Source of the DNA: a virus
Virus genome (UHGV): UHGV-0043900
Direction: 5' to 3' (one strand)
Length of the DNA: 39,203 nt
Below, one piece after another: positions 2,345-18,056 of this stretch. Under the pieces are notes generated by a model. It worked only from the letters and a program-made list of their open reading frames with translations, was not told where the DNA came from and did not search any database. Both the position numbers and the translations under genes were made by a program. The stretch's first letter is position 1. The number at the start of each line of letters is the position of its first letter.

Positions 2345-2379
2345 GAGATAAATGAAGGGGGATCCGTGAGATAAATAAC
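2334..2379 (+). repeat. Prophage left terminal sequence with two putative transposase-binding sites
   Basis: TGATCAGACAT followed by GAGATAAAT at 2345-2353 and GAGATAAATAAC at 2368-2379, 23 bp apart. The right end carries the same arrangement in inverted orientation. Confidence 0.6.
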
Positions 2380-2456
2380 GAATTGGAGTGGGTTAACATG
2401 GGTTCTGGTGAACAGAACTGAAATTCTTTTTCGCTATACGATAGATAAGTCGGACA

Positions 2457-2486
2457 TTGAAATCATCCTTTCTGGCAACTTAGAAT
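2457..2486 (+). promoter_or_regulatory. Candidate sigma70-type promoter reading inward from the left end
   Basis: TTGAAA, 18-bp spacer, TAGAAT, about 45 nt upstream of the 2530 ATG. By-eye match only. Confidence 0.3.
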
Positions 2487-2529
2487 CGAGTTTGCTGAAA
2501 CATGACCCGTAACAAAAAGGATGATTCCA

Positions 2530-2691
2530 ATGACTACTCAAAACAATAAGCATGACAGCCTTGATTACTCAGAAAGGCCCAAAAGCAAGCACATCGTGAC
2601 GTTCGAGCGCGATTCCGGTAGAAAAGGAGAATCGTCTTCCTCTGCCAATAAAACCACTATGCCGGCAGCCCCTGCTCCAGGGAAAAAATAA
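2530..2691 (+). CDS. Small hydrophilic protein (53 aa), unknown function; below the ORF-track size cut-off
   Basis: ATG at 2530 preceded by AAGGA at a 9-nt spacing and a candidate promoter. Ends 3 nt from the stop of the convergent 2695-3327 gene. No recognisable motif. Confidence 0.3.
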   Translation: MTTQNNKHDSLDYSERPKSKHIVTFERDSGRKGESSSSANKTTMPAAPAPGKK

Positions 2692-2694
2692 ACA

Positions 2695-3327
2695 TCATTC
2701 ATCGTTCGTTGCACGAACGCGCCTGATCTCCACTCTGGCAATCTGATCTGCTGGAATATAGGTTGCCAGAGCTCCCCAGTACTTATCAACCACGCCTTTA
2801 TACTCTTCCCATTCGTTACTGCCTGAAGGGCTGCTGTGCGTGACGTAAAGAACCATATCGCCTTTATTCCCCAGGGTAAACGGACCGTTAGGCCACTCTT
2901 CAAAGTTCCCTGGCAGTCGTGACATCATACCGGAACCATCGCGAAGAATCACTCTGACCTCGGTAACGCTGAAGCCTGTTTGATCAAACATTGCCTGCCA
3001 TGCTGAGCTGGTATCGTCAGACCATGAAATATCATTATTCCACAGTAATCTGTACATCCATTTGCGACCGTACCTGCGCCACCACGCACCGCATGTAACG
3101 GCACACAGAAGTGCTGGTGGTGTTGCCAGCCAGGCATTCAGACCTGCCCACATAACTGCCTGGTAAGCCATCATTGCTGTCAGGCCAAAAATCAGCGAAG
3201 AAAAAGTCACCTCAATGGGCTTGTGGTGATCCTTCAGTCCCACATTCGCAATAAAATACCCAATATAGCCACTGGTCAGGGTCACCAGTGTTGCCCATGG
3301 CAGATTTAACAACGAAACGTCAAACAT
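2695..3327 (-). CDS. Membrane protein (three predicted TM helices plus ~110-aa soluble C-terminal domain), unknown function; last gene of the early arm
   Basis: ORF 2695-3405 with start reassigned to the ATG at 3327 (MFDVSLL...), preceded by AGGGAG. Hydrophobic segments LPWATLVTLTSGYIGYFIANVGL, IEVTFSSLIFGLTAMMAYQAVMWAGL and WLATPPALLCAVTCGAWW. No family recognised. Confidence 0.6.
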   Translation of the reverse strand: MFDVSLLNLPWATLVTLTSGYIGYFIANVGLKDHHKPIEVTFSSLIFGLTAMMAYQAVMWAGLNAWLATPPALLCAVTCGAWWRRYGRKWMYRLLWNNDISWSDDTSSAWQAMFDQTGFSVTEVRVILRDGSGMMSRLPGNFEEWPNGPFTLGNKGDMVLYVTHSSPSGSNEWEEYKGVVDKYWGALATYIPADQIARVEIRRVRATNDE

Positions 3328-3441
3328 ATTTTCTCCCTGCATCCTGAATACTAAAGAAAGAGCATAAAAAAAGCACGGTAAGGGGTCTACCGTGCTTTTA
3401 TACAATAAAGAGATTTTTGAAAGGACTTTAACAAGCAGGAA

Positions 3442-3840
3442 TTATCTGGATTTGTTAACGTCTTTCGTCTCCTCTGGCAGATCTTCATCAAACAACCTGC
3501 CCTGCATCCGATCCAGTTCTTCTTTTCTGACCCGCTTAACCACGCTGTAGACCCACTGAAGCGAAACACCAAACTTGCGGGCCAGTTCGTGGTGGTTGCG
3601 TCCGTTAAACTCCCTGAAGATTTCCCGGTCGCGCTGACTGACCTTCCATACCATGCCCATCGGGAAATAAACGTTTTGCCCGCCCCAGACCTGCATCATT
3701 CGGTTCGCGACGGCCTGACCAATCTGGTCGGCAATTGCGGGCTCAATATCAATAATCTCGCGAACGGTCTCAGAGGTATGCTGTGCCAGTTCCACCAGGA
3801 GTTCCGGCCCTTTACTTCGAAACTGATTCAGGTCGCTCAT
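3442..3840 (-). CDS. mor: Mor/C-family transcriptional activator (middle/late gene activator)
   Basis: 132 aa; C-terminal HTH region REIFREFNGRNHHELARKFGVSLQWVYSVVKRVR matches the Mor pattern; sits directly after the GemA-like gene as in Mu. Confidence 0.7.
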   Translation of the reverse strand: MSDLNQFRSKGPELLVELAQHTSETVREIIDIEPAIADQIGQAVANRMMQVWGGQNVYFPMGMVWKVSQRDREIFREFNGRNHHELARKFGVSLQWVYSVVKRVRKEELDRMQGRLFDEDLPEETKDVNKSR

Positions 3841-4264
3841 GTTTTACTCCCGCAGCTCTGCGCTGCCACTTCTTCAGTTTCTCAATAACACTGCTTGCCT
3901 GTTCAGTACTGAGCCAGCGCAGGGCGCTGATGCCCGTTTCCCGCTTGATCCACCGCGCTAATGCATTTTCTGAACGGTCACGAACAATGCCGGCAGCAGC
4001 CATTTCAAGCCATAGCGCACGGATTTTCCTGGACTGCGGATGGTTATCCAGCTGTAAACCGGAGCTGGCTTTTCCGGCAGGCTTAACGCGAAAGCCTTTC
4101 CTTTTCATGGATTCCAGCACGCAGTTTAGTTGTGTGGTATCCATTCCTTTGGTTGAGGCTTTACCGGTCAGCCCCTCTAACATCTGGCGGTAGGTGTCTT
4201 CATCCATACCCAGTTCATTACGGGCAATATGAATGAGCTGGATAAGACGTTGTTTAGTCATCAT
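3812..4264 (-). CDS. gemA: GemA-like protein (Mu gp16 / DUF1018 family)
   Basis: Motifs LIQLIHIARNELGMDEDTYRQML, KIRALWLEMAAAGIVRD and ALRWL...IEKLKKW typical of Mu gp16. Start set at ATG-ATG 4264 with AAAGGAG RBS. Confidence 0.75.
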   Translation of the reverse strand: MMTKQRLIQLIHIARNELGMDEDTYRQMLEGLTGKASTKGMDTTQLNCVLESMKRKGFRVKPAGKASSGLQLDNHPQSRKIRALWLEMAAAGIVRDRSENALARWIKRETGISALRWLSTEQASSVIEKLKKWQRRAAGVKHERPESVSK

Positions 4265-4469
4265 CGTTGCTCCTTTTACCTGCGCCACCGATATAATCGA
4301 CATATAAAGGAAGCGCCACAGGCCAGCACAGGAACATCACCGACCAGCTAATCCAGTAGCCGGCACCACTGTAACGTGAATAAAACCCTGAACGGCGCTG
4401 CAGTTCAGCAGTACACCAACCGACAAAACAATACCAGAACAGGGCACATACAACAGATTCAGCCGTCAT
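4254..4469 (-). CDS. Small membrane protein (~71 aa), unknown function
   Basis: Internal start of ORF 4254-4625 (MTAESVVCALFWYCFVGW...); two hydrophobic segments; short overlap with the upstream gene. Confidence 0.4.
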   Translation of the reverse strand: MTAESVVCALFWYCFVGWCTAELQRRSGFYSRYSGAGYWISWSVMFLCWPVALPLYVDYIGGAGKRSNDDD

Positions 4470-4689
4470 TCTGAATATCCCCCCAACTGATATGAATATT
4501 ACGGGCAGCAATGACTGGGTCGTTATTCCACCATGCACCTGACATATATTTTTCAACCTGTTCGCGTCCGGCAATAACACCAATTGTGATCCCCGGCCTG
4601 ACGTTCTTAAAAAAGGCGCGGGCAAAAAGGTATCTGGCAGATATTCGGCAGGCTTTTAATTTCCGGCTGTTACCTGATAACGTCATCAT
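4459..4689 (-). CDS. Hypothetical early protein (76 aa)
   Basis: ORF in the early operon with start overlapping the stop of the upstream gene (ATGA at 4686-4689). Confidence 0.4.
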   Translation of the reverse strand: MMTLSGNSRKLKACRISARYLFARAFFKNVRPGITIGVIAGREQVEKYMSGAWWNNDPVIAARNIHISWGDIQNDG

Positions 4690-5369
4690 CTGGCCTCCAG
4701 TTTCTGCTGTTCCCGCCCACTGACCGGTCGGTGCAGTCTGACGTTCTGCCCTTCTCGAAACCCCGCATAGCGCGAGGTGTCGCCATTGCGACTTCTTCCC
4801 GGTTTACGCGCCCTGGTGGTTTGCGTCTGCGGGTATTTATGTTCCAGCCACTGCTGCATCAGTTCACGTTCGTCATCGGTCAGGGCGAAGGACTGTATTT
4901 CACTGATAACGGCCAGCACCCAGCCTTCAGCAAACTGGTCTCCACGGCTGGTGCGGGTGGCGGTTTTTATTCTTTTGTTCTGTGTACTGATATACTGCTG
5001 ACGCGCCTTTTTCAGCTGACGGGCCAGCACTTCCCAGGTGTACGCAGCCAGTGCGGCCCGTTCCCGGTTGCCGTAGAACCCCACACCCGGATATGTGCCG
5101 GGGTGAATGATGGAGTTAACACCAAATGCCTCGCGGATGATGTTCATCAGGCCCAGCATGTAGCGCGGCGGACGGAGGCTGCCTGTCGGCCAGTAGTGAC
5201 TGATGGTTTCATCAATATCACTCATGGCGATGTCGGAATGTGTGATGCCGTGAACATCCATCAGTTTACGGGCGCGGCGCAGTGCCAGAGCAGCCTCATG
5301 CGGGTTGCCGGATGCTGCCAGCGCCAGCAACTTTTTCAGTTTCTCAATGTGCTTATCCTGGTCTGTCAT
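4686..5369 (-). CDS. Early protein with DUF2786-like N-terminus
   Basis: 227 aa; N-terminus KHIEKLKKLLALAASGNPHEAALALRRARKLMDVHGIT resembles the DUF2786 helical motif common in phage early regions. Recalled family, not searched. Confidence 0.5.
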   Translation of the reverse strand: MTDQDKHIEKLKKLLALAASGNPHEAALALRRARKLMDVHGITHSDIAMSDIDETISHYWPTGSLRPPRYMLGLMNIIREAFGVNSIIHPGTYPGVGFYGNRERAALAAYTWEVLARQLKKARQQYISTQNKRIKTATRTSRGDQFAEGWVLAVISEIQSFALTDDERELMQQWLEHKYPQTQTTRARKPGRSRNGDTSRYAGFREGQNVRLHRPVSGREQQKLEAR

Positions 5370-5566
5370 TGTTCAGTATCTCCGGTATTTTTTTGCTGTT
5401 CCCATGCCCGAACAGCGTCGGACAGCTCTTTCAGGCTGTATGCTGCTTTAAGCTTTACCCACAACCACTGCGTCACCACGTGGGTCAGCAGGGCAACCAG
5501 GGCGAATCCGGCGCAGATGCACACGGCTATACCAGTAAGCAGGAAAGCCCATACCACAATTTCCAT
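5366..5566 (-). CDS. Small single-pass membrane protein (~66 aa)
   Basis: Internal start of ORF 5366-5803 (MEIVVWAFLLTGIAVCICAGFALVALL...); the long upstream extension of that ORF overlaps the neighbouring gene in another frame. Confidence 0.4.
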   Translation of the reverse strand: MEIVVWAFLLTGIAVCICAGFALVALLTHVVTQWLWVKLKAAYSLKELSDAVRAWEQQKNTGDTEQ

Positions 5567-5573
5567 AATGGTG

Positions 5574-5957
5574 TCAGTCACCGGTACCTCCTGTGGTGGT
5601 CTGGTCAGGTGCGGCGTGTGTCCTGTGGTATTTCCTGAACCAGTGGTACAGGGCAGCCAGTTTTCTGTCGATAACTTCAGTTTCCCTGTTGAAGTATTCC
5701 TGTGCCTCTTTCTCCTCTTGCGGCGGCAGTTCGCCCGGCCCACACAGGGTGTTGTAAATCCACGCCATGCCGTTCCTGGCATCACCGGTGGCCCGCCACT
5801 CAATCACTGCAGCTTTCATGACAACCAGATTGCGCCCGAAGTACAGGTCCACCTCTTCAAATCTCTTGCGCAGGTATTCGTTTTCGTCTTCCAGTACCCG
5901 AATACGCTGTGCAACATCTTCAGGCGTCAGTTGTGGCGTCTGTTCAGTGCAGTTCAT
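5574..5957 (-). CDS. Hypothetical early protein (127 aa), predicted helical
   Basis: ORF in early operon; start overlaps the stop of the upstream gene. Confidence 0.5.
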   Translation of the reverse strand: MNCTEQTPQLTPEDVAQRIRVLEDENEYLRKRFEEVDLYFGRNLVVMKAAVIEWRATGDARNGMAWIYNTLCGPGELPPQEEKEAQEYFNRETEVIDRKLAALYHWFRKYHRTHAAPDQTTTGGTGD

Positions 5958-6256
5958 ATGATTTCTCCGGTGTATGTGACGCCCAGCCGTGCGGCAAGGC
6001 GTTCCAGTTTTTTCTGTTTGTGGAAGTCAATCAGTCGGTCCATCCCCTGAAGGCGCAACTGCTCTGTCATGATTTCCACGTCTGCCAGTTCTGCCGCGAG
6101 GTCACTTTCGCTGCCCTGTCCGTTCAGGTTGCGGGCAGCACAGGCTGCCAGTTCAGCGGCCTCTTCTGTCAGTTTCAGTGACTGTGCATCCGGCCCGAAA
6201 CGCTGCAGGGCCAGACGATAGAGGGCGGTGCGTGTGCGTATGGTGTTACGTGTCAT
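5954..6256 (-). CDS. Possible MazG-like nucleotide pyrophosphohydrolase (small all-helical NTP-PPase fold)
   Basis: 100 aa with pattern LKLTEEAAELAACAARN...SDLAAELADVEIMTEQL resembling the EExxE...ExxD...D metal-binding helices of MazG-like proteins. Motif-level only. Confidence 0.45.
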   Translation of the reverse strand: MTRNTIRTRTALYRLALQRFGPDAQSLKLTEEAAELAACAARNLNGQGSESDLAAELADVEIMTEQLRLQGMDRLIDFHKQKKLERLAARLGVTYTGEII

Positions 6257-6265
6257 GCCGCGCCC

Positions 6266-6538
6266 TCAGTGCTTCCGATCGACGGTGATGTTCAGGTTGC
6301 CTTCTGCAGTGGTTTCCATCCGGTACGGCACTTCGTGCTGTGCCGTATGGGTGAGTGTGTTCACCAGTACCTGCAGGGCAGCCTCCTTTCCGTTGGTCGC
6401 CACAATGGCCTGAGCGGCCATGCTGATTAGCGCCGTCAGGACGTGCTTCACATCAGTGAGGTCGCGGCATTCACACTCGTTGACATAGTGTTCAACAAGG
6501 AGTCGGGTGCGCTGTCGTGCTTCCTGTGGGGTAATCAT
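6266..6538 (-). CDS. Hypothetical early protein (90 aa)
   Basis: ORF in early operon with 4-nt start/stop overlap with the upstream gene. Confidence 0.5.
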   Translation of the reverse strand: MITPQEARQRTRLLVEHYVNECECRDLTDVKHVLTALISMAAQAIVATNGKEAALQVLVNTLTHTAQHEVPYRMETTAEGNLNITVDRKH

Positions 6539-6729
6539 TGCGCGTCCTCCCTGTCAGGGCGGGAGAATTCCATGACGGGCACGTCCGCCGAAAAATGCTG
6601 GCTGCAGTACGGACAGACCAGGGTGACACGTACTGCAGGTACGTGGTACTTACCGGACATCACGGCGATGGCGCTGTGAAAACGCAGGGCTGTTATATCC
6701 CTCTCGCACTGAATACATTTAAATATCAT
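6535..6729 (-). CDS. Small zinc-ribbon protein (CxxC...CxxC)
   Basis: 64 aa with Cys pairs C5/C8 and C39/C42 (KCIQCERD ... CPYCSQHF). Confidence 0.45.
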   Translation of the reverse strand: MIFKCIQCERDITALRFHSAIAVMSGKYHVPAVRVTLVCPYCSQHFSADVPVMEFSRPDREDAQ

Positions 6730-6826
6730 GATTTAATTCTCCTCTGTTTCCGGCGTGCAGAAGCCCACGGCGCTGACGCCGGAATAAAAAAGAAAATGTT
6801 TTTATTAAATAATTAACGTGGTGTGT

Positions 6827-7357
6827 TTACTGCACATCCTGTTCAAAAGGAATTATTGAAAAATCCTCAATATCGCTTTTTATGGTAATACCGGGAATAT
6901 TTTTCACAGCCTCTTTTTCATTCAGGATAGCGTCTTTATTTATTTCCTCTTTTACACGAATAAAGCGCTCAAGCCCCAGACGTCTCAGTAGTTCAATAAC
7001 ATTATCCGCCCCGCGAATGCTGACTGACGGTGGACGGTTTCGCCACTGCACCTCGCCAGTGGTGAGGTTAGCGAACTTCACCTTCCCGTTGCCGGTCAGT
7101 TCGTCACGGTGCGCCTCACACCATGTCTGGATACCGGACTGCAGTTCGGCCATGCGTTTTTTCAGGCTCTCGGTGAGCGGGGCATAACGAGCGGTGATAT
7201 CGCCAATGGCGTCATTCATTTCTGTTTCAGCCCTGACCAGTTCACGTTGTGCGTCACCGAGCAGTCTGATTCCCTCAATGACCTCTTCACGTGTCCCCGG
7301 CACCCAGAGTGCTGCTGCGGCCTTGATACGTTTTGCCCCTTTTGTACTTTTTGCCAT
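6827..7357 (-). CDS. gam: Gam-like host-nuclease inhibitor (Mu Gam / Ku-like DNA-end-binding protein)
   Basis: 176 aa, near-colinear with Mu Gam: KRIKAAAALWVP, GKVKFANLTTGEVQWRNRPPSVSIRG, GLERFIRVKEEINKDAIL, DFSIIPFEQ. Strong RBS AGGAGG. Confidence 0.85.
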   Translation of the reverse strand: MAKSTKGAKRIKAAAALWVPGTREEVIEGIRLLGDAQRELVRAETEMNDAIGDITARYAPLTESLKKRMAELQSGIQTWCEAHRDELTGNGKVKFANLTTGEVQWRNRPPSVSIRGADNVIELLRRLGLERFIRVKEEINKDAILNEKEAVKNIPGITIKSDIEDFSIIPFEQDVQ

Positions 7358-7384
7358 ATTTTATGACTCCTCCTGTTGTGCTGA

Positions 7385-7654
7385 TTACCACAGAGATTCC
7401 GGCCACACGACGCGACAGCCGTGCAGTTCGAAAACGCCCTGACGGAAATGTCCCCTGTGGTCATGACCGGTATACAGATAACTGGCTTTCCCCTGCTCAA
7501 GCATGCGCATGCAATGCGCACTCCTGGAAACGCGAATGACAGGTTTGTTACCCCTGATGGTGATGCTTTGTACATCCGTGTTCGTCGCCTTAAGCGCCAT
7601 AATGGCTGACAGCACTTTGCTGATTTGCTGGTTGATACCTGTGGTGGATTTCAT
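7385..7654 (-). CDS. Hypothetical early protein (89 aa) directly downstream of B
   Basis: ORF with AAGGGG RBS; occupies the position of kil-type genes in Mu-like phages. No motif recognised. Confidence 0.5.
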   Translation of the reverse strand: MKSTTGINQQISKVLSAIMALKATNTDVQSITIRGNKPVIRVSRSAHCMRMLEQGKASYLYTGHDHRGHFRQGVFELHGCRVVWPESLW

Positions 7655-7656
7655 TA

Positions 7657-8823: not shown

Positions 8824-8833
8824 GTTTTCCTCC

Positions 8834-10603
8834 TCAGTTGCCGTTAACAATGCTGATAACACTGCTGCGGACCGGCGTGGTCAGCGTGGCCATGACTTCA
8901 TCCAGTGCGGCTTCCGGTACGCCGTCCGGGTACTGTGCCGTTAACTGGCGGTAATGTTCCGGCGTCCAGGTAAGGCCGTTGGCGCTGAACTTATCGCGCA
9001 GGGCTTTCGCGGCCTCCACATGAGTCATGGGACGTTGTTCAGTGCGCGGCCCGCGTACGTCAGAGGCCTGACCACGCTTCGGCATATAGGCCGGAAGTGT
9101 GGCGTCATCAATATGTTTATACGGGTCAAGTCGTCCGCCGAACGGCAGTGCCTTCGCCTTGCGTGCGGCAGCTGCATCTGCGGCGTTGTCTGTACCGGTG
9201 ACCAGCGCTTCGGTTTCTTTTGCCGCCATCTGCGCCGGGGTTTCCGGCAGGGCTTTGTAACTTTCGCCAAATACCGCCGCGCCTTCAGCAAAGCCAAACT
9301 CGTTCTTTCTGACCTCTTCGACCAGGAAGAACGTCTCGTGGCCGTCCTCACCGGTCAGAACCACCTGTGCCACATCGCTGCGCCACGGGTTACGGGTAAT
9401 CATCAGTTTTTCACCGACCAGTACGCCCGGTACCGTTGATACGTCAAATTCAGTGCCCCGGAACGAGACACGAAGTTTTGGCGTGACTTTGCGGAGTTCT
9501 GGTGCCGCCACAGCCAGTTCACGACATACCTCAACGGAAGGCGCTTTTTTCAGCTGCTCAGCAGTAATCTTCAGCCAGATATCCGTGCGGGTTTTACCGT
9601 GGCGGCTGTGAACAGCCGTGGCGTTAAAGTGGCTGCGCCATTTCGCGGCCAGCGCGTTGAGTTCTTCCAGACTGTGAACCGGCCGGAACTTCAGACCCGG
9701 CTCCAGCTTGCGTTCGATAATGTCACGCGCCTTTTCCACCTGTCCGGTGGCGCGGGCGTTATGCGGCCTGTGCGCTATCAGGTCGATGCCCAGTGAGCGG
9801 CACATGTTTTTCGTCATACCCGCGGTGTTCGCCGAACCGGGGTCGAGATAGAGTATTTTCGGCACGCCGTGCAGCACGTCTGCGCCACCGCGCTCCTGCA
9901 TGGCGTTGATAAGCACAGAACACAGGTTCTCACCGGATTCCGCACCCGTCACATACTCAACGTAAATCCAGCCGCTGGCATGGTCGGTAATCTCGTAACT
10001 CCACACGCGGTCACTGGCGATACGGGCAAGGTTAGCGGGCTTGTTCTTGTAGAATTTCGCGCTGTCCATCACCTGCAGCCCTTTATGTCCATTGCTCAGG
10101 TAGTAAAGCGTGCATAGTGAGGCGTCAATCTGCCAGACATGATTGGGGTGCAGACTGGCCACTTCGGTATGCGGTGCAGGGGCATCCAGTTGTTCCGGGT
10201 GCAGGCCATAGTTACGCAGGGCACGACTGATGGCATCTTCGGACAACGGGAAAAACTCACCGGTGGTTTCATCTGTTCTGCCTGCGGAGATAAAGCCGTT
10301 AGCCCGCAGGGTTTCCACTGCATCCGCGATGGAATAAAGACGCTTACCGTTCTTGCGGGTGGCCTCACGCAGTGTGGCAGATATCAGCGCGGCTTCGTCG
10401 CGGGTCAGGGCGCTGCGCCCGGCATCGGCGCGTTTTTTGCGTTTATCAGTCACAGAGACCTCCTTCAGCCTGCGCAGCAGAGTGGCGCGGGACATGCCAA
10501 GTTCAGCACAGGCAGCGTCGTATATTGCACCGCGTTTACCATGCCCCGCGTCACGTGCCGCGCGGGCGACATAAACCAGTCGTTCAGTCAGGGCAGCATT
10601 CAT
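8834..10603 (-). CDS. DDE transposase A (rve/integrase-core superfamily, transposable-phage type)
   Basis: 589 aa; N-terminal HTH region and a central integrase-like catalytic core (HVWQIDASL ... YLDPGS ...). GGAGG RBS. Paired with the B ATPase. Confidence 0.85.
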   Translation of the reverse strand: MNAALTERLVYVARAARDAGHGKRGAIYDAACAELGMSRATLLRRLKEVSVTDKRKKRADAGRSALTRDEAALISATLREATRKNGKRLYSIADAVETLRANGFISAGRTDETTGEFFPLSEDAISRALRNYGLHPEQLDAPAPHTEVASLHPNHVWQIDASLCTLYYLSNGHKGLQVMDSAKFYKNKPANLARIASDRVWSYEITDHASGWIYVEYVTGAESGENLCSVLINAMQERGGADVLHGVPKILYLDPGSANTAGMTKNMCRSLGIDLIAHRPHNARATGQVEKARDIIERKLEPGLKFRPVHSLEELNALAAKWRSHFNATAVHSRHGKTRTDIWLKITAEQLKKAPSVEVCRELAVAAPELRKVTPKLRVSFRGTEFDVSTVPGVLVGEKLMITRNPWRSDVAQVVLTGEDGHETFFLVEEVRKNEFGFAEGAAVFGESYKALPETPAQMAAKETEALVTGTDNAADAAAARKAKALPFGGRLDPYKHIDDATLPAYMPKRGQASDVRGPRTEQRPMTHVEAAKALRDKFSANGLTWTPEHYRQLTAQYPDGVPEAALDEVMATLTTPVRSSVISIVNGN

Positions 10604-10606
10604 TGG

Positions 10607-11518
10607 TTATGCCTCCAGCCCGTTAATCTGTGGCGTCGGCTCAGTCAGCCATGAAGGCGCTGCATTGCCTGTTGGCTCGTCCGGCAGGTCAAATGTGGAG
10701 CGCAGGCTACGCGCTGTGCTTTCCAGTTGACAGACCAGGCCTGCCATGAAATCTCTGGGGGTATCAATCATGTTTTCAGCACAATATGCGCACAGTGTCT
10801 CAAAAGCGCTGGACAGTCGAACGGCGATAGCAGATTCCGCCTCAACCGCTAATGCTGTTACTTCCGCCCGCAGCTTCTTAACCTCCTCATCAGGCTCAGG
10901 CGGCTGAATACGGGATTTCTTCTCCAGTCTGGTGGAGAGTGAGTCTATTTTTTCATTTTTGTCGGCGAGTACGCGCTGTTGTGCTGCGTTGGTTTCGCGC
11001 GCTTCGCGCAGGGCCTGACGCAATTCACGTACTGACATGCGATCAACATCGTCAAGCGTCAGTCCTGCGACTGTGCCGCCGTCGGCCAGTTCAGCAAGGT
11101 CGTCGTCATCTTCAGCAACAAGTTCAAATAATTTTGCCTTACCTAAAAGCGACAACGTTGTCGCTTTTGGCTCTAGTTTTGGTGAAAGGTATTTCAAAGA
11201 TGCTTTCATCATTCGTTGTGCTGCGCGCACATGCAGACCAAGTTGTTCTTCTACAATTCCAACAAAGTCCCCGTGTGGTTCATTTTCTTTGAGAATAATA
11301 AGTCGTTTACCTGCTTCCAGCATGGCCTCAGCGCTCTGTGCCATATAAAACCGAGCCTCATGAACTATGCGATCACGCTCATAGGGCTGACCATCGCCAA
11401 ACTGCTGCATGATCTCCATGCGATGCTGTGTCATGGCGTTCAGACTGACATTGAGATCATCCGACAGCGGTACCTCGGCGTTCAGTTCAGTGTTAATCGG
11501 TGATTTGGTGCGTCCCAT
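10607..11518 (-). CDS. Conserved transposable-phage early protein (possibly DUF3102-like)
   Basis: 303 aa, helical and acidic; sits between the regulators and the transposase; AAGGAG RBS. Family name recalled, not verified. Confidence 0.55.
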   Translation of the reverse strand: MGRTKSPINTELNAEVPLSDDLNVSLNAMTQHRMEIMQQFGDGQPYERDRIVHEARFYMAQSAEAMLEAGKRLIILKENEPHGDFVGIVEEQLGLHVRAAQRMMKASLKYLSPKLEPKATTLSLLGKAKLFELVAEDDDDLAELADGGTVAGLTLDDVDRMSVRELRQALREARETNAAQQRVLADKNEKIDSLSTRLEKKSRIQPPEPDEEVKKLRAEVTALAVEAESAIAVRLSSAFETLCAYCAENMIDTPRDFMAGLVCQLESTARSLRSTFDLPDEPTGNAAPSWLTEPTPQINGLEA

Positions 11519-11528
11519 TTATTACTCC

Positions 11529-11837
11529 TTACAAACGACTACCTGAAATGACACGTTGGTTGATTTCGTTAATGCGATCCTGTGCACGTGCCATCTCGTT
11601 ACTGTGGGCCATAGCGATCTGCAGTAACTGGATGCCCGGCGCGAAACGCCCGTTTTCCAGTTTCAGGGCCAACCCTTCTTCAATGAGGGTGTTGAGTGCC
11701 CGGTTGATGTTTGCCGGTGACTCGTGCAGTGCTGCCGCCAGTTCACCGTTGGAAATACCGTTCAGGGCATGACCGCGCAGCGCTTTGAGTACCCGGAGGA
11801 TGCGACTGCCGGAGCTTGAAACATTCGTCTTACTCAT
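11529..11837 (-). CDS. Winged-helix DNA-binding protein (IclR-like HTH), putative early regulator
   Basis: Segment ILRVLKALRGHALNGISNGELAAALHESPANINRALNTLIEEGL resembles an IclR-type N-terminal HTH. Start set at the second ATG (11837), which has better RBS spacing. Confidence 0.5.
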   Translation of the reverse strand: MSKTNVSSSGSRILRVLKALRGHALNGISNGELAAALHESPANINRALNTLIEEGLALKLENGRFAPGIQLLQIAMAHSNEMARAQDRINEINQRVISGSRL

Positions 11838-11889
11838 CTGCATACCTCTTTTGCGATATGTGATAACCTTTTACAAAGACTCAAAATCT

Positions 11890-12078
11890 TCAGGCTGCCT
11901 GAGCTGTTGATTTCAGCCCCAACTTCACGGCGATTTCATGGGATTTACCGTAACGGGCTTTGGTCTGCCCATTGAGAACGCGGTATACCTCATTGCGGTT
12001 GTAGCCGTTTTCTTCTGCCCAGCGGGTGAAGGTGATCCCGCGCTGGCGGAAGAGAGCTTTGACTTGTTCTGCAGTCAT
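11890..12078 (-). CDS. Ner-like small DNA-binding protein (Ner/Nlp family); first gene of the early operon
   Basis: 62 aa with the Ner layout VKALFRQRGITFTRWAEENGY...GKSHEIAVKLGL. Divergent from the repressor gene. RBS AAAGGAGA. Confidence 0.6.
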   Translation of the reverse strand: MTAEQVKALFRQRGITFTRWAEENGYNRNEVYRVLNGQTKARYGKSHEIAVKLGLKSTAQAA

Positions 12079-12178
12079 CGTTGTCTCCTTTGTTGATGCA
12101 ATGATGTTTGCCTTATGTGTGATAGATTATGGTGCAGATTATCTCACCAGTCAACTTAAAGAGTGCAGAAAAACTCAC
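12079..12178. promoter_or_regulatory. Divergent early-promoter/operator region between the Ner-like gene and the repressor
   Basis: 100-bp AT-rich intergenic region between divergent regulators, with direct repeats of AGATTAT 12 bp apart within GTGATAGATTATGGTGCAGATTATCTCAC. Confidence 0.45.
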
Positions 12179-12517
12179 ATGATCGGGTTACGTATTAAAG
12201 AAGAAAGAGAGCGTCTATCTCTTACACAGCAAGGGTTGGCTGATGCTATAGGTGTGGCAAAGAGAACTTTCATTGATTGGGAAAAAGATCGCACTTCTCC
12301 TACTGCAGTGCAGTTATCTGCACTATCAGAAATCGGTGTAGATATTTTGTATGTAGTTACTGGGGTGCGGAGTCAGCCTGTTGTTGCACCTTATGTGTCA
12401 CAAGAAAAGAAAGAGTTAATGGATGCATTCGACGAAATGAGCCCCGAACAACGGAGGGCAATTCTTGAGGTCGGCAAAGTCTTCATTCAACCCAAACCAA
12501 GCAAACTCGCAGGCTGA
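12179..12517 (+). CDS. Putative prophage repressor (XRE-family HTH)
   Basis: Internal ATG of ORF 12026-12517; HTH LSLTQQGLADAIGVAKRTFIDWEKDRTSP; divergent from the early operon. GC-poor relative to neighbours. Confidence 0.65.
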   Translation: MIGLRIKEERERLSLTQQGLADAIGVAKRTFIDWEKDRTSPTAVQLSALSEIGVDILYVVTGVRSQPVVAPYVSQEKKELMDAFDEMSPEQRRAILEVGKVFIQPKPSKLAG

Positions 12518-12603
12518 TTTTGACCTGGACACAAAGGGCGCGTGGTTGATCTGGATGCTTTCAGAAAACATCGCCAGTGACATAGTGGAAGTTGTTTGGT
12601 TTA

Positions 12604-12637
12604 CCGGAAAGCATTGTGCTTTCCGGTTTTGTTTCAG
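12604..12637 (+). terminator. Rho-independent terminator between convergent repressor and Dam genes
   Basis: 10-bp perfect stem CCGGAAAGCA/TGCTTTCCGG with 3-nt loop, followed by TTTTGTTT. Confidence 0.5.
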
Positions 12638-13398
12638 AAGTTGCAGATTACCAGTTCACGGCGCGGCGTGGGTTTCCCCGCCAGACTGTAGTTGATATTC
12701 ACCGTCTGTATGTTCAGTTCAGTGAACACCCGACGCATCTGCGGAATGTCATTCACCGAGATAATCATCTTTCCTCTGATGCACCGTGCCAGTTCTGCGA
12801 GTAGTGTGTAGTTCTCTTCAGGAAAATCCACACCATAGCCTTCCGTCCCCAGATAGGGCGGATCACAGTAGAACAGCGTGTGCGGACGGTCATAACGCTT
12901 AATGCACTGGTGCCAGTCCATGTGTTCTATCACCGTTCTGGAAAGCCGCAGGTGTGCCGCTGACAGTTCTTCTTCAATCCGGAGCAGGTTGAAGCGTGGC
13001 GGGGAGGTGGTGGAGGTGCCGAAGCTGTGCTCTGCCACCTTGCCCCCAAACGCCTGCTTCTGGAGGTAGTAGAACCGTGCCGCACGCTGGATATCCGTCA
13101 GTGTTTCTTCCGGGGTGATCTGCTGCCATTTGTAGATCTGCCGGCTAACCAGCGCCCATTTGAATTGGCGGACAAATTCTTCCAGATGATGCTTTACTAC
13201 CCGATACAGATTTACCAGTTCACCGTTGATATCGTTAATGACTTCGATCTTGCTGGGAGTCTTGAGAAAATAAAGTGCTGCTGCGCCGCAGAATGGCTCC
13301 ACATAGCAGGTATGGAGTGGGAACTGGGGCAGAATGTGTTTGGCCAGACGACGTTTTCCCCCAATCCAGGGGACGATGGGTAAAGATTGTTCTTTCAT
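12634..13398 (-). CDS. Orphan DNA adenine methyltransferase (Dam/D12-class N6-adenine MTase)
   Basis: N-terminal IVPWIGGKRRLAKHIL, FCGAAAL AdoMet motif and catalytic DPPY (LFYCDPPYLGTEGYG). Start set at the internal ATG 13398 (MKEQSLPIVPW). No restriction partner evident. Confidence 0.8.
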   Translation of the reverse strand: MKEQSLPIVPWIGGKRRLAKHILPQFPLHTCYVEPFCGAAALYFLKTPSKIEVINDINGELVNLYRVVKHHLEEFVRQFKWALVSRQIYKWQQITPEETLTDIQRAARFYYLQKQAFGGKVAEHSFGTSTTSPPRFNLLRIEEELSAAHLRLSRTVIEHMDWHQCIKRYDRPHTLFYCDPPYLGTEGYGVDFPEENYTLLAELARCIRGKMIISVNDIPQMRRVFTELNIQTVNINYSLAGKPTPRRELVICNF

Positions 13399-13445
13399 TA
13401 TCTGTAAGCCTTTTTCATTAGATGAAAATGCGATAGGCTTCCCTT

Positions 13446-13457
13446 GTTCTCGAGAAC
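13446..13457. promoter_or_regulatory. Perfect 12-bp palindrome GTTCTCGAGAAC in the Dam / paralog-1 divergent intergenic region (candidate operator)
   Basis: The duplicated cassette carries a different perfect 12-bp palindrome at the equivalent position (14081-14092), so dyad symmetry is preserved despite sequence change. Confidence 0.35.
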
Positions 13458-13500
13458 GGAAGAGCCTCGGTTGACTCACAGCTCATACCTGTAAGTTGAT

Positions 13501-13550
13501 GACTCGCCTTGTGTTCGCTGCACAAGGTGAGTCGCTCTTTTCATGTTATT
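13501..13550 (+). terminator. Strong hairpin plus U-rich tract upstream of paralog 1 (terminator or attenuator-like element)
   Basis: 13-bp stem GACTCGCCTTGTG/CACAAGGTGAGTC (one G-U pair), 7-nt loop, then GCTCTTTTCATGTTATTTG. The cassette copy at 14138-14181 has a different stem with the same architecture. Confidence 0.45.
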
Positions 13551-13592
13551 TGCATATTTCATGGGCGACAATTAAAGGGAGTTACTAATACC

Positions 13593-13973
13593 ATGGCCCC
13601 AAAAAATATTGAGCGGTTTAATGAAATAGTTGGTGAGATATTTGGGAGACTCTACGAATCTTTCCCCGTCAAAATTGATATAAAGGCAGTTGATATCGTT
13701 AGACAGAATGAACTTACTTTTTTTCTTGATACCGTAGACTGGCTTAAAAACAGTGGCTATTTAATCGGGGCGCGTAGTTCTGGGGGGATCCACAACGCAG
13801 TGCTAACGGCTAAAGGTCTTGAGGTATTAAACGCTACGCCTGGAAGTCTGGAAAAACCGTTGGGGGCCAGAATATCTGACTCTATAAAAATTGAAGGGAA
13901 AGAAGCGTTGCGATCACTGGTTAGCCAGACTCTAGGAATAGGTCTGCAATATATGTCTCGTGGTCTTATGTAA
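13593..13973 (+). CDS. Small protein of unknown function (127 aa), paralog 1 of a duplicated pair
   Basis: Internal ATG of ORF 13509-13973 with RBS AAAGGGAG. Shares FxxIxGxIFxRL, DTxxWL and VLTxKxLxxLNATP blocks with the protein at 14439-14843. AT-rich codon usage. Confidence 0.6.
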   Translation: MAPKNIERFNEIVGEIFGRLYESFPVKIDIKAVDIVRQNELTFFLDTVDWLKNSGYLIGARSSGGIHNAVLTAKGLEVLNATPGSLEKPLGARISDSIKIEGKEALRSLVSQTLGIGLQYMSRGLM

Positions 13974-14033
13974 TATCGCAAGGCAGCGTTTGCCACCAAT
14001 CCATGGAACGATGGGTAATGTCTGCGTTTTCAT
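13932..14033 (-). pseudogene. Remnant 5' end of a second Dam methylase gene (about 20 conserved codons)
   Basis: Reverse strand encodes MKTQTLPIVPWIGGKR, homologous to the start of the intact Dam (MKEQSLPIVPWIGGKRR), then diverges into the 3' end of paralog 1 and stops after 33 codons. Confidence 0.55.
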
Positions 14034-14080
14034 AATCTGTAAACATTTTACAATTATTAAAAATATGGCAGGCTAGTCTG

Positions 14081-14092
14081 GTCTCGCGAGAC
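14081..14092. promoter_or_regulatory. Perfect 12-bp palindrome GTCTCGCGAGAC (candidate operator of the duplicated cassette)
   Basis: Positional equivalent of GTTCTCGAGAAC at 13446-13457, with the same flanking conserved block CCTCGGT-G-CTCACAGC. Confidence 0.35.
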
Positions 14093-14137
14093 TGACTGAA
14101 CCTCGGTCGGCTCACAGCCACTTCTGTGGGACGATGG

Positions 14138-14181
14138 CCAGCCCGGTGGGTCCGAAGCACCGGGCTGGTCGTTCTTTCATG
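14138..14181 (+). terminator. Hairpin plus U-rich tract, second copy of the cassette leader element
   Basis: 11-bp perfect stem CCAGCCCGGTG/CACCGGGCTGG, 9-nt loop, then TCGTTCTTTCATG. Confidence 0.45.
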
Positions 14182-14224
14182 ATGCGGCAGGGATGAAGTG
14201 ATTTCTGTTAATGTGGTTTAGGGA

Positions 14225-14440
14225 TTATCCGGGGCGATTTTCTGACCTTATCTGGTCCAGGGCATAAGTAATACCTTCTGCAAAAACAGAAGTATCAAAC
14301 TGCTTTTGTATTTCCTGAAAATGAACTGTGGCACGACAGACACTCAGTTCTCCGCGATGTAACCGGATAATATCTTCCAGAACATTGTTCACTGCTTCAG
14401 CACGGCGCTGATGTTCTGTTAACGTTAATCGGGGATTCAT
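14225..14440 (-). CDS. Hypothetical 71-aa helical protein
   Basis: ORF whose ATG overlaps head-to-head with the ATG of the 14439 gene (CATGATG). No recognisable motif. Confidence 0.4.
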   Translation of the reverse strand: MNPRLTLTEHQRRAEAVNNVLEDIIRLHRGELSVCRATVHFQEIQKQFDTSVFAEGITYALDQIRSENRPG

Positions 14441-14843
14441 GATGCACTCCTTAAATGATGATTTTTATGCACTCACCGGCAAAATATTCTGCCGATTACT
14501 GAACACGCATCCGGCACCTCAGGTTTTGATTTATTCTGGTTTTTTCGATATCCCGGACCAGGTTGATCACGACCAGAAAAAGTGCCGGTATTTTATTGAT
14601 ACGCTGATATGGCTTCGGGATAACAGCTATATTCGTTACTCTCAGTTGCTGGCTGTGGGAGCGGCTGATGTCGTCCTCACGGAAAAAACGCTCCGTCTGC
14701 TCAATGCCACGCCGACCCTTCTGCAGCCCCGGCCCGCACCATTTAAAGAGTCACTTCTGGATGCAGTAAAAACCGGTGAAAATGCAGTCATCGCTGAACG
14801 CGTATCCCGGATTATGAGTTACGTGTTTAATGAACGTAAGTGA
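14439..14843 (+). CDS. Small protein of unknown function (134 aa), paralog 2 of the duplicated pair
   Basis: RBS GGGGA then ATG-ATG. Roughly 25-30% identity by eye to paralog 1 over conserved blocks. 3' end overlaps the convergent P-loop gene by 25 nt. Confidence 0.6.
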   Translation: MMHSLNDDFYALTGKIFCRLLNTHPAPQVLIYSGFFDIPDQVDHDQKKCRYFIDTLIWLRDNSYIRYSQLLAVGAADVVLTEKTLRLLNATPTLLQPRPAPFKESLLDAVKTGENAVIAERVSRIMSYVFNERK

Positions 14844-15562
14844 GGTTTATCCGCTGTCTGCATAATCCCGATAGCCAGTGCGAGGGGAAGTAATTCCGGG
14901 GAAGTTCTTTCAAACAGCGATTCCCATTCTCCTCTCGCCATCACTCTGTCCAGCCCGCCCTCCAGTTGCATTTCAGCAATCTTCCTGATTTCCCGGAACA
15001 ACGCCTCTTTGATCACTTCATGCTCAGCTTTATTTTCCGGTGTCAGAATGTATTCGTCGAAGAACCGGGGAGGCTGGTTAACGGGGATTGTGTTCACCGG
15101 GATGTGTTCCTGCTTCCCGTACTTCGGGGCCGAAAAACATTCTGTTGGCTGACCAGTGAGTTTACGTAGCTCCTTCATGAGCAGCTCCTGATCGTAAACT
15201 GCCATCAGTGCCGCAATAGTGGCATGCAGTGCATCGGGCAGTGTCCATGGGTACTGGCCTGTGGGGCATATAACATCCAGCAGTGCATTCGTCCGGAGAA
15301 TGCATCCCTCGCTGTATGACATCGGAGTTTTTTCTGTGTATTCCTCCAGTCGGATAAGTGTGCCTGCCCGTGGTTTCTGCCATGTGCTCAGATCACCCCC
15401 ACTCATACGGCGCTCACCGTCCACGTCTGCGGCGTCGACAATGACGCTGTTTCCGAATTCCTGTTTCACCACTTCCTCTATCCGCGCCAATATGTAACTT
15501 TTACCGCTGCCCACAGGACCGGACACGGTGACAGTGATGACCGGATTCAGTGTCTGCGTCAT
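14819..15562 (-). CDS. Small P-loop NTPase/kinase-like protein (247 aa), unknown function
   Basis: N-terminal Walker A VTVSGPVGSGKSY, followed by hhhhD-like SVIVDAADVDG. Strong RBS GAGGAG. Resembles small nucleotide-kinase or zeta-toxin-like folds in layout only. Confidence 0.7.
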   Translation of the reverse strand: MTQTLNPVITVTVSGPVGSGKSYILARIEEVVKQEFGNSVIVDAADVDGERRMSGGDLSTWQKPRAGTLIRLEEYTEKTPMSYSEGCILRTNALLDVICPTGQYPWTLPDALHATIAALMAVYDQELLMKELRKLTGQPTECFSAPKYGKQEHIPVNTIPVNQPPRFFDEYILTPENKAEHEVIKEALFREIRKIAEMQLEGGLDRVMARGEWESLFERTSPELLPLALAIGIMQTADKPHLRSLNT

Positions 15563-15634
15563 ATCGTATTCTCCTCTGTGAATAATTCATCGTTTATCCT
15601 GCACATCCCGTATCCCCGGCTCTCTTAACGCGCT

Positions 15635-15673
15635 TTAAAATCCTTCGCGCCCTGTATTTGTGATGCTGTCTCC
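15635..15673 (+). promoter_or_regulatory. Candidate activator-dependent late promoter of the lysis operon
   Basis: TTAAAATC-N23-CTGTCTCC with inner CTGTATTT, about 20 nt upstream of the holin ATG. The same bipartite motif at identical spacing occurs at 23030-23068. Confidence 0.4.
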
Positions 15674-15692
15674 ACCAGATAAGGAGACACAC

Positions 15693-16043
15693 ATGAAAAA
15701 CCTGAAAACATTCATTCCCCCTGTTAAAAAACCTCGCCTCAGCGGCTGGCTGCTGACCTCAGTGCTGTTGCTGGGCACCATCGCTCTGGTCTCACCACAG
15801 CAACTGCCTGTTGTGATCTACAAGCTGGCACTCATCACGCTGGCAGCAGTGCTGGGTTACTGGCTTGACCGTTCGCTCTTCCCCAAAGCCCGTCCCGGTC
15901 AGTACCTGAAACATGACGACAGGCTGATGGCTGAAGGGCGTTTCCCGGTACAGACCGGCCTTCACCTGGTGTTTTCTGCTGCGTTAATCCGCCGTGCACT
16001 GATTGTTGCAGCGGTCTGCCTGGCTGTTGCGATGGGGCTTTAA
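15693..16043 (+). CDS. Putative holin (three predicted TM segments)
   Basis: Internal ATG of ORF 15660-16043 with RBS AAGGAGA; 116 aa, three hydrophobic helices; immediately upstream of the endolysin. Confidence 0.55.
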   Translation: MKNLKTFIPPVKKPRLSGWLLTSVLLLGTIALVSPQQLPVVIYKLALITLAAVLGYWLDRSLFPKARPGQYLKHDDRLMAEGRFPVQTGLHLVFSAALIRRALIVAAVCLAVAMGL

Positions 16044-16045
16044 TC

Positions 16046-18054: not shown

Positions 18055-18056
18055 TT

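Follow-up and report, generated by a model that had tools for sequence, protein, structure and literature searches.

Divergent early and late arms around a central repressor and cargo block in a BcepMu/B3-type transposable prophage inserted in tssH

The region at positions 2530–15562 very probably represents the early arm and the immunity/cargo segment of a single, intact transposable prophage of BcepMu/B3 type, that is, a Mu-like phage with a Tn552-related rve transposase. We studied it within the whole window, the 39,203-nt UHGV virus genome UHGV-0043900, in which the prophage occupies positions 2334–38665. As a preliminary description of this DNA had claimed, the early operon runs leftward, the lysis, head and tail genes run rightward and the repressor and cargo are central: early genes start at 12.08 kb (18 minus-strand genes, 2695–12078), late genes at 15.66 kb (~30 plus-strand genes, 15660–38414), and GC skew is negative in the left arm and positive in the right one. 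This seemingly inverted layout is real, yet it is the standard design of the BcepMu/B3 group and no anomaly. The divergent organisation has already been described (PMC5977238; PMC8705779), and Toussaint and Van Gijsegem (2018), as cited in these two papers, reported the same one.

The prophage is complete and measures 36.3 kb (36,332 bp). Similarity to the host T6SS gene tssH halts at 2333 and resumes at 38666, with the hexamer TCCGGC on both sides as a 6-bp target duplication. This moves the left terminus, placed at ~2530 in the preliminary description, to 2334. The element reads TGATCAG...GCATCA and thus has TG...CA termini, which together with a 6-bp target duplication characterise the group (PMC8705779; PMC2628397); the 6-bp duplication itself is a footprint ascribed to B3/Tn552-family transposases (PMC8705779). 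The motif GAGATAAAT occurs four times in the window (0.14 expected), two copies per end and in the BcepMu/B3 register, and these are putative transposase-binding sites. A search for internal end sites (this motif, TG...CA ends, target duplication) inside the element, including 12–16 kb, found none. Insertion into tssH very probably took place by transposition. Replication by transposition and packaging with attached host DNA, both traits of the group, may apply here too, with indirect support from the presence of two near-identical copies at unrelated loci.

A second copy, equally long (36,332 bp) and differing by 3 mismatches, is inserted in adeP of Escherichia coli strain IGC_RcoliRes_1.1, bordered by its own 6-bp duplication, GCTGCA. 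So few differences between the tssH and adeP copies of the 36.3-kb unit imply very recent movement. The layout is also found in hundreds of E. coli genomes: related prophages, recognised by a match to the central 5.5 kb, are present in 637 of 5426 complete genomes, 472 of which match at least 80% of positions 10600–16100, an interval that spans the junction region (Table 1).

Table 1 Features of the prophage and its ends in window coordinates; promoter and binding-site entries are predictions.
Feature	Position	Strand	Remarks
Target-site duplication TCCGGC, left copy	2328–2333		Host homology ends at 2333; same hexamer past the right end
Left phage end	2334–2376	+	Begins TG; two GAGATAAAT at positions 12–20 and 35–43
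Accessory gene, predicted membrane protein (phrog_12870)	2695–3405	−	Left end beyond Mor; missing in BcepMu and PhiKM
Mor/C-family transcription activator	3442–3840	−	Pfam Mor E 1e-43; 56% identity with BcepMu gp01
GemA	3812–4303	−	Pfam GemA E 2e-40
DUF2786/DUF7168 early protein	4686–5369	−	B3 homologue ORF5
Gam host-nuclease inhibitor	6827–7357	−	62% identity with Mu Gam, 67% with D3112 Gam; missing in BcepMu and B3
Transposition ATPase (TnpB analogue), ExeA/AAA_22 type	7657–8862	−	Pfam AAA_22 E 3e-20; 60% identity with BcepMu gp08
DDE (rve) transposase, Tn552/B3/BcepMu type	8834–10603	−	Pfam rve
DUF3102 early protein	10607–11518	−	Homologue of BcepMu gp10 and B3 ORF13
Winged-helix (wHTH) regulator (phrog_1368)	11529–11843	−	Homologue of B3 ORF14
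Small HTH protein, BcepMu gp16 family	11890–12078	−	Opens early operon; TIGR04111; 71% identity with B3 ORF17
Divergent switch region	12079–12178		Holds leftward sigma-70-like promoter candidate
Repressor, HTH_3 (cI/DicA-like)	12179–12517	+	Kin of BcepMu gp17 and B3 ORF18
Orphan Dam-type N6-adenine DNA methyltransferase	12634–13479	−	63% identity with B3 ORF48
Cargo remainder	13509–15562		Four genes and Dam-derived duplicate
phrog_2266 paralogue 1	13509–13973	+	
phrog_4490 gene	14225–14440	−	
phrog_2266 paralogue 2	14439–14843	+	
Walker-A protein (phrog_3787)	14819–15562	−	
Candidate late promoter site 1, TCTTAACGCGCTTTAAAATC	15623–15642	+	Ahead of holin
Lysis cassette: holin, endolysin, Rz-like ORF	15660–17420	+	
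Holin (Holin_2-3)	15660–16043	+	
SLT transglycosylase endolysin	16046–16786	+	
Mu gp27-like terS	18051–18599	+	Pfam Phage_Mu_Gp27
Mu-type terminase, portal, F-like and G-like head genes	18051–22878	+	44–62% identity with BcepMu gp27–31; matches to Mu gp28–31
Candidate late promoter site 2	23018–23037	+	Ahead of protease/scaffold gene
Head protease, major capsid, P2-like contractile tail, baseplate, tail fibre, fibre assembly	23093–38414	+	Colinear with BcepMu gp32–gp52; RefSeq annotation of near-identical copy
Candidate late promoter site 3	28936–28955	+	Ahead of tail assembly and tape-measure genes
Candidate late promoter site 4	34736–34755	+	Ahead of baseplate W/J/I and tail fibre genes
Right phage end	38624–38665	−	Final CA; two GAGATAAAT, inverted orientation
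Target-site duplication TCCGGC, right copy	38666–38671		Same hexamer as at left end

The transposition genes also place the element in the BcepMu/B3 group. We compared the transposase with the BcepMu, B3-like and Mu A proteins: it shares 68.5% identity with BcepMu gp09 over 98% of its length and 57% with B3-like phages, and tblastn gave no match to Mu A. The HMM classification that the preliminary description had proposed as a check found rve as the only Pfam domain, which agrees with the Tn552/B3/BcepMu type (the Tn552 label comes via BcepMu and B3). The ATPase encoded next to it is of ExeA type and had no tblastn match to Mu B. More generally, homologues of Mu A, Mu B, the Mu repressor and Ner were sought by tblastn among the 54 window ORFs and no match appeared. 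Of the names first given to the early genes, Gam, GemA and Mor hold, but 'A' and 'B' do not if taken as homologues of Mu A and Mu B. Likewise, 'Ner-like' fits the small HTH gene by position but not by homology: its product scores 97 bits against TIGR04111 (cutoff 34), has no match to Mu Ner, and is a Cro/Ner analogue in position only. GemA and the Mor/C-family gene lie at the far end of the early arm, where the latter is the final regulatory gene. When ORFs from all six frames were searched with the family profile, this gene was retrieved with E 7.5e-49 and no second family member appeared (next-best match E >1), in agreement with the earlier remark that a separate C-type activator is not evident; a single Mor/C gene is a trait of the family.

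The central 100 bp may constitute a back-to-back lysogeny switch. The repressor ORF extends over 12026–12517, with 12179 as its likely start. Facing the early arm there is a candidate sigma-70-like promoter (TTGACT-17-CATAAT, 12154 to 12126), and two AGATTAT repeats overlie the -10 element of this promoter-like site; homology with heteroimmune relatives stops at 12131. The rightward-encoded repressor would turn off this leftward early promoter. Upon induction, the early transcript would begin with the Cro/Ner analogue, proceed through the regulator genes, those for transposase and ATPase, Gam and others, and reach the lone Mor/C-family activator after ~8.5 kb. This activator would then act in trans on four rightward promoters, at ~15.63, 23.03, 28.94 and 34.74 kb, to switch on the lysis, head and tail genes. 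Sequence patterns and the parallel with Mu are the grounds on which we infer these promoters, the operators and the resulting two-tier cascade.

The candidate late promoters share a distinctive pattern. TCTTAA-N5-TTTAAWATC has three exact sites, against 0.02 expected, and a fourth at 3 mismatches, and the pattern TTAANNNNNNTTAAWAT with at most one mismatch retrieves exactly these four sites, all of them plus-strand and intergenic, 51–75 nt 5' of the first ATG of a gene block. Each contains a TTAA-N6-TTAA dyad centred ~42–43 bp upstream of the presumed start and a weak xAxxCT -10-like hexamer (GATGCT, CAAACT, CATACT, AATACT), without a -35 element. The late promoters of Mu are activator-dependent, with a dyad centre near -43: Mu C binds a 16-bp imperfect dyad, centred at -43.5, at four late promoters without -35 hexamers (PMC2582627). 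Equivalent gaps in BcepMu carry similar dyad sites. The pattern had no match in B3 and, therefore, the late motif is not common to the whole group. A terminator-like hairpin (28916–28931) sits just 5' of candidate site 3.

Between the repressor and the first candidate late promoter lies a ~3-kb block with the Dam methylase and four further genes on alternating strands, as well as a duplicated, now diverged Dam 5' end with its leader (13978–14179). Relatives carry three alternative gene sets in this same interval, and homology with these cargo variants restarts at 15622–15626, at the first base of late motif 1. The interval would thus behave as an exchangeable cargo slot.

The preliminary description had itself named an assembly inversion and the juxtaposition of two elements as readings that could overturn its interpretation. 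Inversion of the early region by an assembly artefact can be practically discarded. The PhiKM record, circularly permuted and partial, gives a weak hint that assembly can rearrange phages of this kind, but the adeP copy belongs to an independent complete genome and has, at another locus, the same order and orientation; the 472 junction-spanning E. coli genomes and the shared order and orientation of the BcepMu and B3 genomes likewise rule out this artefact. We give just as little credit to a transposon-like early module adjoining an unrelated P2/Mu-like structural prophage. The genome is certainly mosaic, with a P2-like tail, a Mu-like head and a Mu/D3112-like Gam missing in BcepMu and B3. However, a single pair of ends and a single 6-bp duplication flank all 36.3 kb, the search for end motifs retrieved none inside, the full unit moved together into adeP in another strain, and its length agrees with those of BcepMu (36.7 kb) and B3 (38.4 kb).

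A true Mu (Muvirus) relative with a recently inverted early operon would explain why Gam, GemA, Mor and several head proteins are 28–62% identical to their Mu homologues, and why the tail-fibre assembly gene resembles Mu U. Nevertheless, this is highly improbable: neither the transposase, with its rve domain only, nor the ATPase detectably resembles Mu A or Mu B, the 6-bp duplication is of B3/Tn552 type (PMC8705779), the end sites are of the kind seen in BcepMu and B3, and one-way nucleotide similarity to Mu is ~2%. The hallmarks of Muvirus (Mu A/Mu B, a left-end c repressor, colinear gene order, and Mor and C as distinct genes) were not found: the C gene is absent, and the searches for Mu repressor and Ner homologues retrieved none. 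Less far-fetched, although still unlikely, is that the layout is of BcepMu type but that this copy is a defective, non-inducible remnant with its circuit out of use. RefSeq indeed labels an early ORF (5574–5894 in window coordinates) as partial in a near-identical copy. However, all recognised essential genes are full length compared with BcepMu, both ends are intact, the adeP copy, so similar over 36 kb, points to very recent movement, and the 94%-identical PhiKM was deposited as a phage record. An intact BcepMu/B3-type prophage is the reading that we retain.

Comparison with annotated records of known phages, also suggested in the preliminary description, places the window with BcepMu and B3 and apart from Mu and D3112. 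Escherichia phage Mu (NC_000929; Muvirus) and Pseudomonas phage D3112 have the repressor leftmost and the early and late genes on the same strand, that is, they are colinear as had been stated. They resemble the prophage in being temperate and transposable, in their size of ~37 kb and in encoding homologues of its Gam, GemA, Mor and several of its head proteins, whereas its transposase and ATPase show no relationship with Mu A and Mu B. The prophage, BcepMu, B3 and D3112 have one Mor/C gene each, but Mu has two, and its cascade is three-tier, with an extra middle tier in which Mor acts on Pm to produce C. Mu also has an invertible G segment and mom, both missing in the window.

Pseudomonas phage B3 (NC_006548; Beetrevirus) has the same divergent plan with central regulators, is colinear with the window in the early, lysis and head modules, and has the same end architecture. 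Besides homologous lysis and head genes and the Dam methylase (63%), similarity includes the transposase (56% identity), the ATPase (55%, ORF11), the DUF3102 protein (54%), the wHTH regulator (56%) and the gp16-family HTH protein (71%). Nevertheless, its flexible siphovirus tail has no homology to the window tail genes, and its Dam gene lies in the tail region beside a Com-like gene instead of in the central slot.

Burkholderia phage BcepMu (NC_005882; Bcepmuvirus) shares gene order and strands across nearly the whole genome: ~40 of the 54 window ORFs match it by tblastn in an unbroken colinear series, confirming the earlier assignment of the inverted arms to this type. In its annotated record, gp01 (Mor/C) to gp16 are on the minus strand, the gp17 repressor is on the plus strand at 9.2 kb, and the holin gp21 is at 11.5 kb. 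Both phages have Mor/C and GemA at the far left, a leftward rve transposase, ExeA-type ATPase, gp10 homologue and gp16-family HTH protein, then a rightward cI-like repressor, accessory genes, holin, SLT endolysin and Rz, followed by a head module like that of Mu and a contractile tail of P2 type. They also share TG...CA termini with paired 9-bp sites; in BcepMu and B3, as in the window, G(A/C)GATAWWT stands at positions 12–20 and ~34–43 of both ends.

Protein identity with BcepMu is only 30–77%. Among the early genes, the window has Gam, DUF2786 and others where BcepMu has HU, SSB-like and DUF3164 proteins; the cargo consists of Dam and four genes instead of gp18–gp20; an extra membrane-protein gene lies past Mor at the left; and the right end lacks an acyltransferase. 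One-way blastn similarity is ~23% (34% of the prophage aligned), whereas the ICTV genus threshold is about 70% nucleotide identity, so membership refers to the BcepMu-like group and not necessarily to the ICTV genus Bcepmuvirus in the strict sense. Named relatives of BcepMu are phiE255 and Escherichia phage PhiKM. The latter, whose GenBank record is partial and circularly permuted and gives a multidrug-resistant urinary tract infection as its source, is filed under Bcepmuvirus, and its DNA is 94% identical to the window over 80% of query positions 2400–16100.

ORF listing and family searches placed every recognisable gene from 12078 down to 2695 on the minus strand and all genes from 15660 to 38414 on the plus strand, and the GC skew flips its sign from one arm to the other. 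The arrangement proposed in the preliminary description, with divergent arms and a central repressor and cargo, was thus borne out. Its gene calls needed some correction: the layout stood, but the left end lies at 2334, the genes named "A" and "B" are not homologues of Mu A and Mu B, and "Ner-like" is apt by position only. Since the published literature describes the same organisation, this layout is already known. It is the defining organisation of BcepMu/B3-type transposable phages, textbook-standard since publication of the B3 and BcepMu genomes, and serves as a criterion by which transposable phages with Tn552-related transposases are classified. Only a late-promoter motif, an exactly bounded cargo slot and several side observations go slightly beyond the published description.

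Features of the prophage and its flanks (window coordinates)
Feature	Coordinates	Strand	Remarks
Host tssH, AAA+ part	50-2344	-	left of prophage
56-aa ORF	2521-2691	+	left accessory region
Membrane-protein gene, phrog_12870	2695-3405	-	about 210-236 aa; left accessory region
Mor	3442-3840	-	
GemA	3812-4303	-	
DUF2786/DUF7168 protein	4686-5369	-	several small ORFs also in early arm
ORF matching PADLOC "DpdH"	5574-5957	-	127 aa
Gam	6827-7357	-	
ATPase, AAA_22/ExeA-type	7657-8862	-	
rve DDE transposase	8834-10603	-	
DUF3102 protein	10607-11518	-	
Winged-helix regulator	11529-11843	-	
HTH protein, BcepMu gp16 family	11890-12078	-	62 aa; TIGR04111, 97 bits (cutoff 34)
Switch region	12079-12178		
HTH_3 repressor	12026-12517 (ORF)	+	HTH starts just past ATG at 12179
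Dam-type methylase	12634-13479	-	between arms
Four cargo genes		alternating	between arms; without assignable function
Dam-leader direct repeat	13343-13482; 13978-14118		72-74% identity
Inserted phrog_2266 gene	13509-13973		between repeat copies
Promoter-hairpin element	14027-14178	+	
Candidate late sites 1-4 (start)	15623; 23018; 28936; 34736	+	
Lysis genes		+	holin, SLT endolysin, Rz-like ORF
Head genes		+	Mu gp27-like terS, terL, portal, F-like, G-like, protease/scaffold, capsid
Tail genes		+	P2-like sheath, tube, tape measure, baseplate, fibres
Hairpin with TTTATAAA	22922-22959		between G-like and protease genes
Host tssH, N-domain part	38644-39153	-	right of prophage

We compared 54 ORFs of the window by tblastn with the records of BcepMu, B3, Mu and D3112. 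BcepMu gave a single unbroken colinear run of matches on identical strands, from Mor (56% identity) to gp52, which took in GemA (46%), the ATPase (60%), the transposase (69%), gp10, gp12, gp16, the repressor, the holin, the endolysin and the head and tail genes. B3 was likewise colinear for the early arm, lysis and head genes, its tail giving no match, whereas matches to Mu and D3112 were limited to Gam, GemA, Mor and some head proteins, and no window ORF matched Mu A, Mu B, Ner or the Mu repressor. In Mu and D3112 the early genes share a strand with the late genes, so that their relative orientation is opposite to that observed here. Among all phage records, the transposase was 69% identical to those of BcepMu-like Burkholderia and Ralstonia phages, 57% to those of B3-like Pseudomonas phages and 93-98% to those of three enterobacterial phages (PhiKM, KP12 and Phi06_2974 B). 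Together, the colinear matches and the transposase relationships upheld the suggested BcepMu/B3-type assignment. Escherichia phage PhiKM (PQ738613), filed under Bcepmuvirus, shows 94% DNA identity over 80% of the stretch 2400-16100. Compared with BcepMu, one-way nucleotide similarity is only about 23%, and the phage is therefore BcepMu-like in a broad sense and not close kin of the type phage. Its Gam shares 62-67% identity with those of Mu and D3112 and has no tblastn counterpart in BcepMu or B3, which makes the middle of the early arm a mosaic of both kinds of transposable phage.

A divergent layout might also arise from an assembly inversion or from two juxtaposed elements, and the prophage ends bear on this directly. 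We located them through host-homology breakpoints; a generic inverted-repeat search missed them. In BLAST comparisons with complete E. coli genomes, homology to host tssH ends at 2333 and resumes at 38666, so that the prophage spans 2334-38665 (36,332 bp). It starts with TGATCAG, finishes with GCATCA and has the direct 6-bp repeat TCCGGC on both sides. Such a 6-bp repeat has been interpreted as the footprint of a B3/Tn552 family transposase in a paper that also notes conserved TG-CA ends (PMC8705779), and BcepMu-related prophages with an rve core have TG...CA termini (PMC2628397). Two GAGATAAAT sites lie at each end, inverted at one end relative to the other; this 9-mer has four matches in the window (0.14 expected), none of them outside the ends. 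The BcepMu and B3 ends follow the same plan, TG and then G(A/C)GATAWWT at positions 12-20 and about 34-43. A search of the window found the composite pattern at the two ends only and nowhere in the interior. Furthermore, a copy of equal length with 3 mismatches disrupts adeP in strain IGC_RcoliRes_1.1, with GCTGCA on both sides. With no internal ends and the entire unit relocated as one piece, both the inversion and the two-element explanations are disposed of. The true ends of such phages cannot be read from the PhiKM record, which is circularly permuted and partial, starts in terS and joins the tail-fibre end to the Mor end at about 20.2-20.7 kb.

The insertion splits tssH (clpV), the gene for the ClpV-type ATPase of the T6SS, at junctions 2333/2334 and 38665/38666, and thereby knocks it out in this strain. 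The left fragment is a 764-aa ORF whose ATG is supplied by the phage end sequence. As it is oriented like the early operon, read-through might yield a truncated ClpV.

Next to this junction, between the left end and Mor, lies a second accessory region (2334-3441). PhiKM has no homology to it, its match to the query starting at 3482, and the phrog_12870 gene has no match in BcepMu. Further along the early arm, the 127-aa ORF matches the PADLOC model "DpdH" from end to end (E 1e-89). This ORF has no Pfam or NCBIfam match, is missing from PhiKM and BcepMu, and is tagged as partial by RefSeq in an identical prophage; a literature search for DpdH returned unrelated papers only. The model may itself derive from close relatives.

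Of 5426 complete E. coli genomes, 637 match the central 5.5 kb (10600-16100), and in 472 of these the match covers 80% or more of that segment; this prophage type thus occurs in about 12% of the genomes, ST131 included. In pairwise blastn with relatives, homology is lost at 12131, within the switch region, and regained at 15622-15626, which indicates that the repressor and cargo form a replaceable cassette. Relatives carry three alternative gene sets between repressor and holin: two hypothetical genes with a small ATPase, a set including a DUF2441 protein, and a nucleoid-associated protein with Dam in a different position. The interval, whose limits coincide exactly with the operator (12131) and the first late site (15622), may be a cargo slot defined by recombination. 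Its load here comprises an orphan Dam, with 63% identity to B3 ORF48, a pair of wHTH-like phrog_2266 paralogues, a 71-aa phrog_4490 protein and a Walker-A protein of phrog_3787. The four genes beside Dam could represent an exclusion or anti-defence cassette expressed by the prophage. Pfam and NCBIfam searches of the cargo recognised only Dam, plus a sub-threshold AAA_30 match to 14819-15562. PADLOC matched Dam, the HTH domains of the repressor and, weakly, 14819-15562 (E 0.002-0.007), besides DpdH in the early arm. The cargo had no match among PDB sequences, and single-sequence AlphaFold2 models of 14819-15562 (pLDDT 36) and 14439-14843 (pLDDT 44) were too poor for use.

Within the cargo, the 5' codons of Dam and its leader are duplicated as a direct repeat whose copies flank an inserted phrog_2266 gene. 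The second copy is kept in 556 E. coli genomes, where it is positioned at the Dam 5' end. Three features mark the plus-strand element at 14027-14178, which overlaps this copy: a site resembling a promoter, 119 nt that fold strongly (z-score -3.9), and a hairpin accompanied by a run of T residues, with a compensatory change in PhiKM. These features led us to consider a free-standing sRNA at 14060-14178, which we downgraded since the conserved block turned out to duplicate, in diverged form, the leader and 5' end of Dam. The element may instead provide antisense RNA or leader control of Dam. Rfam gave no match at gathering thresholds in the whole window, and only chance-level ones in 13900-14300.

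In the late arm, a hairpin with the palindrome TTTATAAA separates the G-like gene from the protease gene. It has counterparts in BcepMu (about 18725-18760) and B3 (about 19745-19765), in whose GC-rich genomes the octamer occurs once, at about 51% of the length. Mu has an annotated strong gyrase site in the corresponding G-I gap. By analogy, the hairpin could be a counterpart of this central site; it could also be a terminator. Taken jointly, single-activator two-tier late control, a recombination-defined slot with an exclusion or anti-defence load and a gyrase-site analogue at TTTATAAA make up a tentative proposal that we consider rather unlikely to hold as a whole. The significance as a discovery is low; the practical value lies in annotation, which gains exact prophage boundaries, a marked variable cargo slot and predicted, testable locations of one early and four late promoters.

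Regulation was examined from the centre outwards. Between the two divergent start codons lie 100 bp with a predicted leftward promoter (TTGACT-17-CATAAT), whose -10 element is overlapped by two AGATTAT repeats at 12123-12144, consistent with a cI/Cro-like switch between the arms. The predicted early transcript would start near 12119, run leftward for about 8.5 kb and finish with the sole Mor/C-family gene. A profile search of all six-frame ORFs detected that gene (E 7.5e-49) and nothing else below E = 1, and tblastn with five family members found no second one; with this profile Mu yields two genes, and BcepMu, B3, D3112 and PhiKM a single one each. Four intergenic sites of the right arm share the motif TCTTAA-N5-TTTAAWATC, three of them exactly (0.02 expected) and the other with 3 mismatches, and the core TTAA-N6-TTAAWAT with at most one mismatch retrieves exactly these four, all on the plus strand. 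Each precedes one of the lysis, protease-capsid, tail-assembly and baseplate blocks, 51-75 nt before its first ATG; where relatives differ in cargo, their homology restarts exactly at the first of the four sites. No sigma-70 consensus promoter was called at any of the four, and the literature examined contained no published description of these late promoters.

The simplest reading of these sequence patterns, by analogy with Mu, is a two-tier cascade. In the E. coli lineage of BcepMu-like phages, a single Mor/C-family protein may directly drive all late transcription through the four TTAA-N6-TTAA sites, and the delay before the late phase would come from the distal placement of the activator gene. 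A -10-like hexamer (A2 and T6 invariant) follows the late motif by 19 nt and so centres the dyad near -42 or -43. These hexamers lie at 15662-15667, 23057-23062, 28975-28980 and 34775-34780, and late transcripts would be expected to begin about 7 nt beyond them. Mu C binds a 16-bp imperfect dyad centred at -43.5 in each of its four late promoters, which have no -35 element (PMC2582627), and a study of Mor at Pm gives the same geometry as for Mu C (PMC4390567). The late sites described here therefore match the geometry of Mu C at the Mu late promoters, and BcepMu has similar sites in the equivalent gaps; the putative two-tier cascade would replace the three tiers of Mu.
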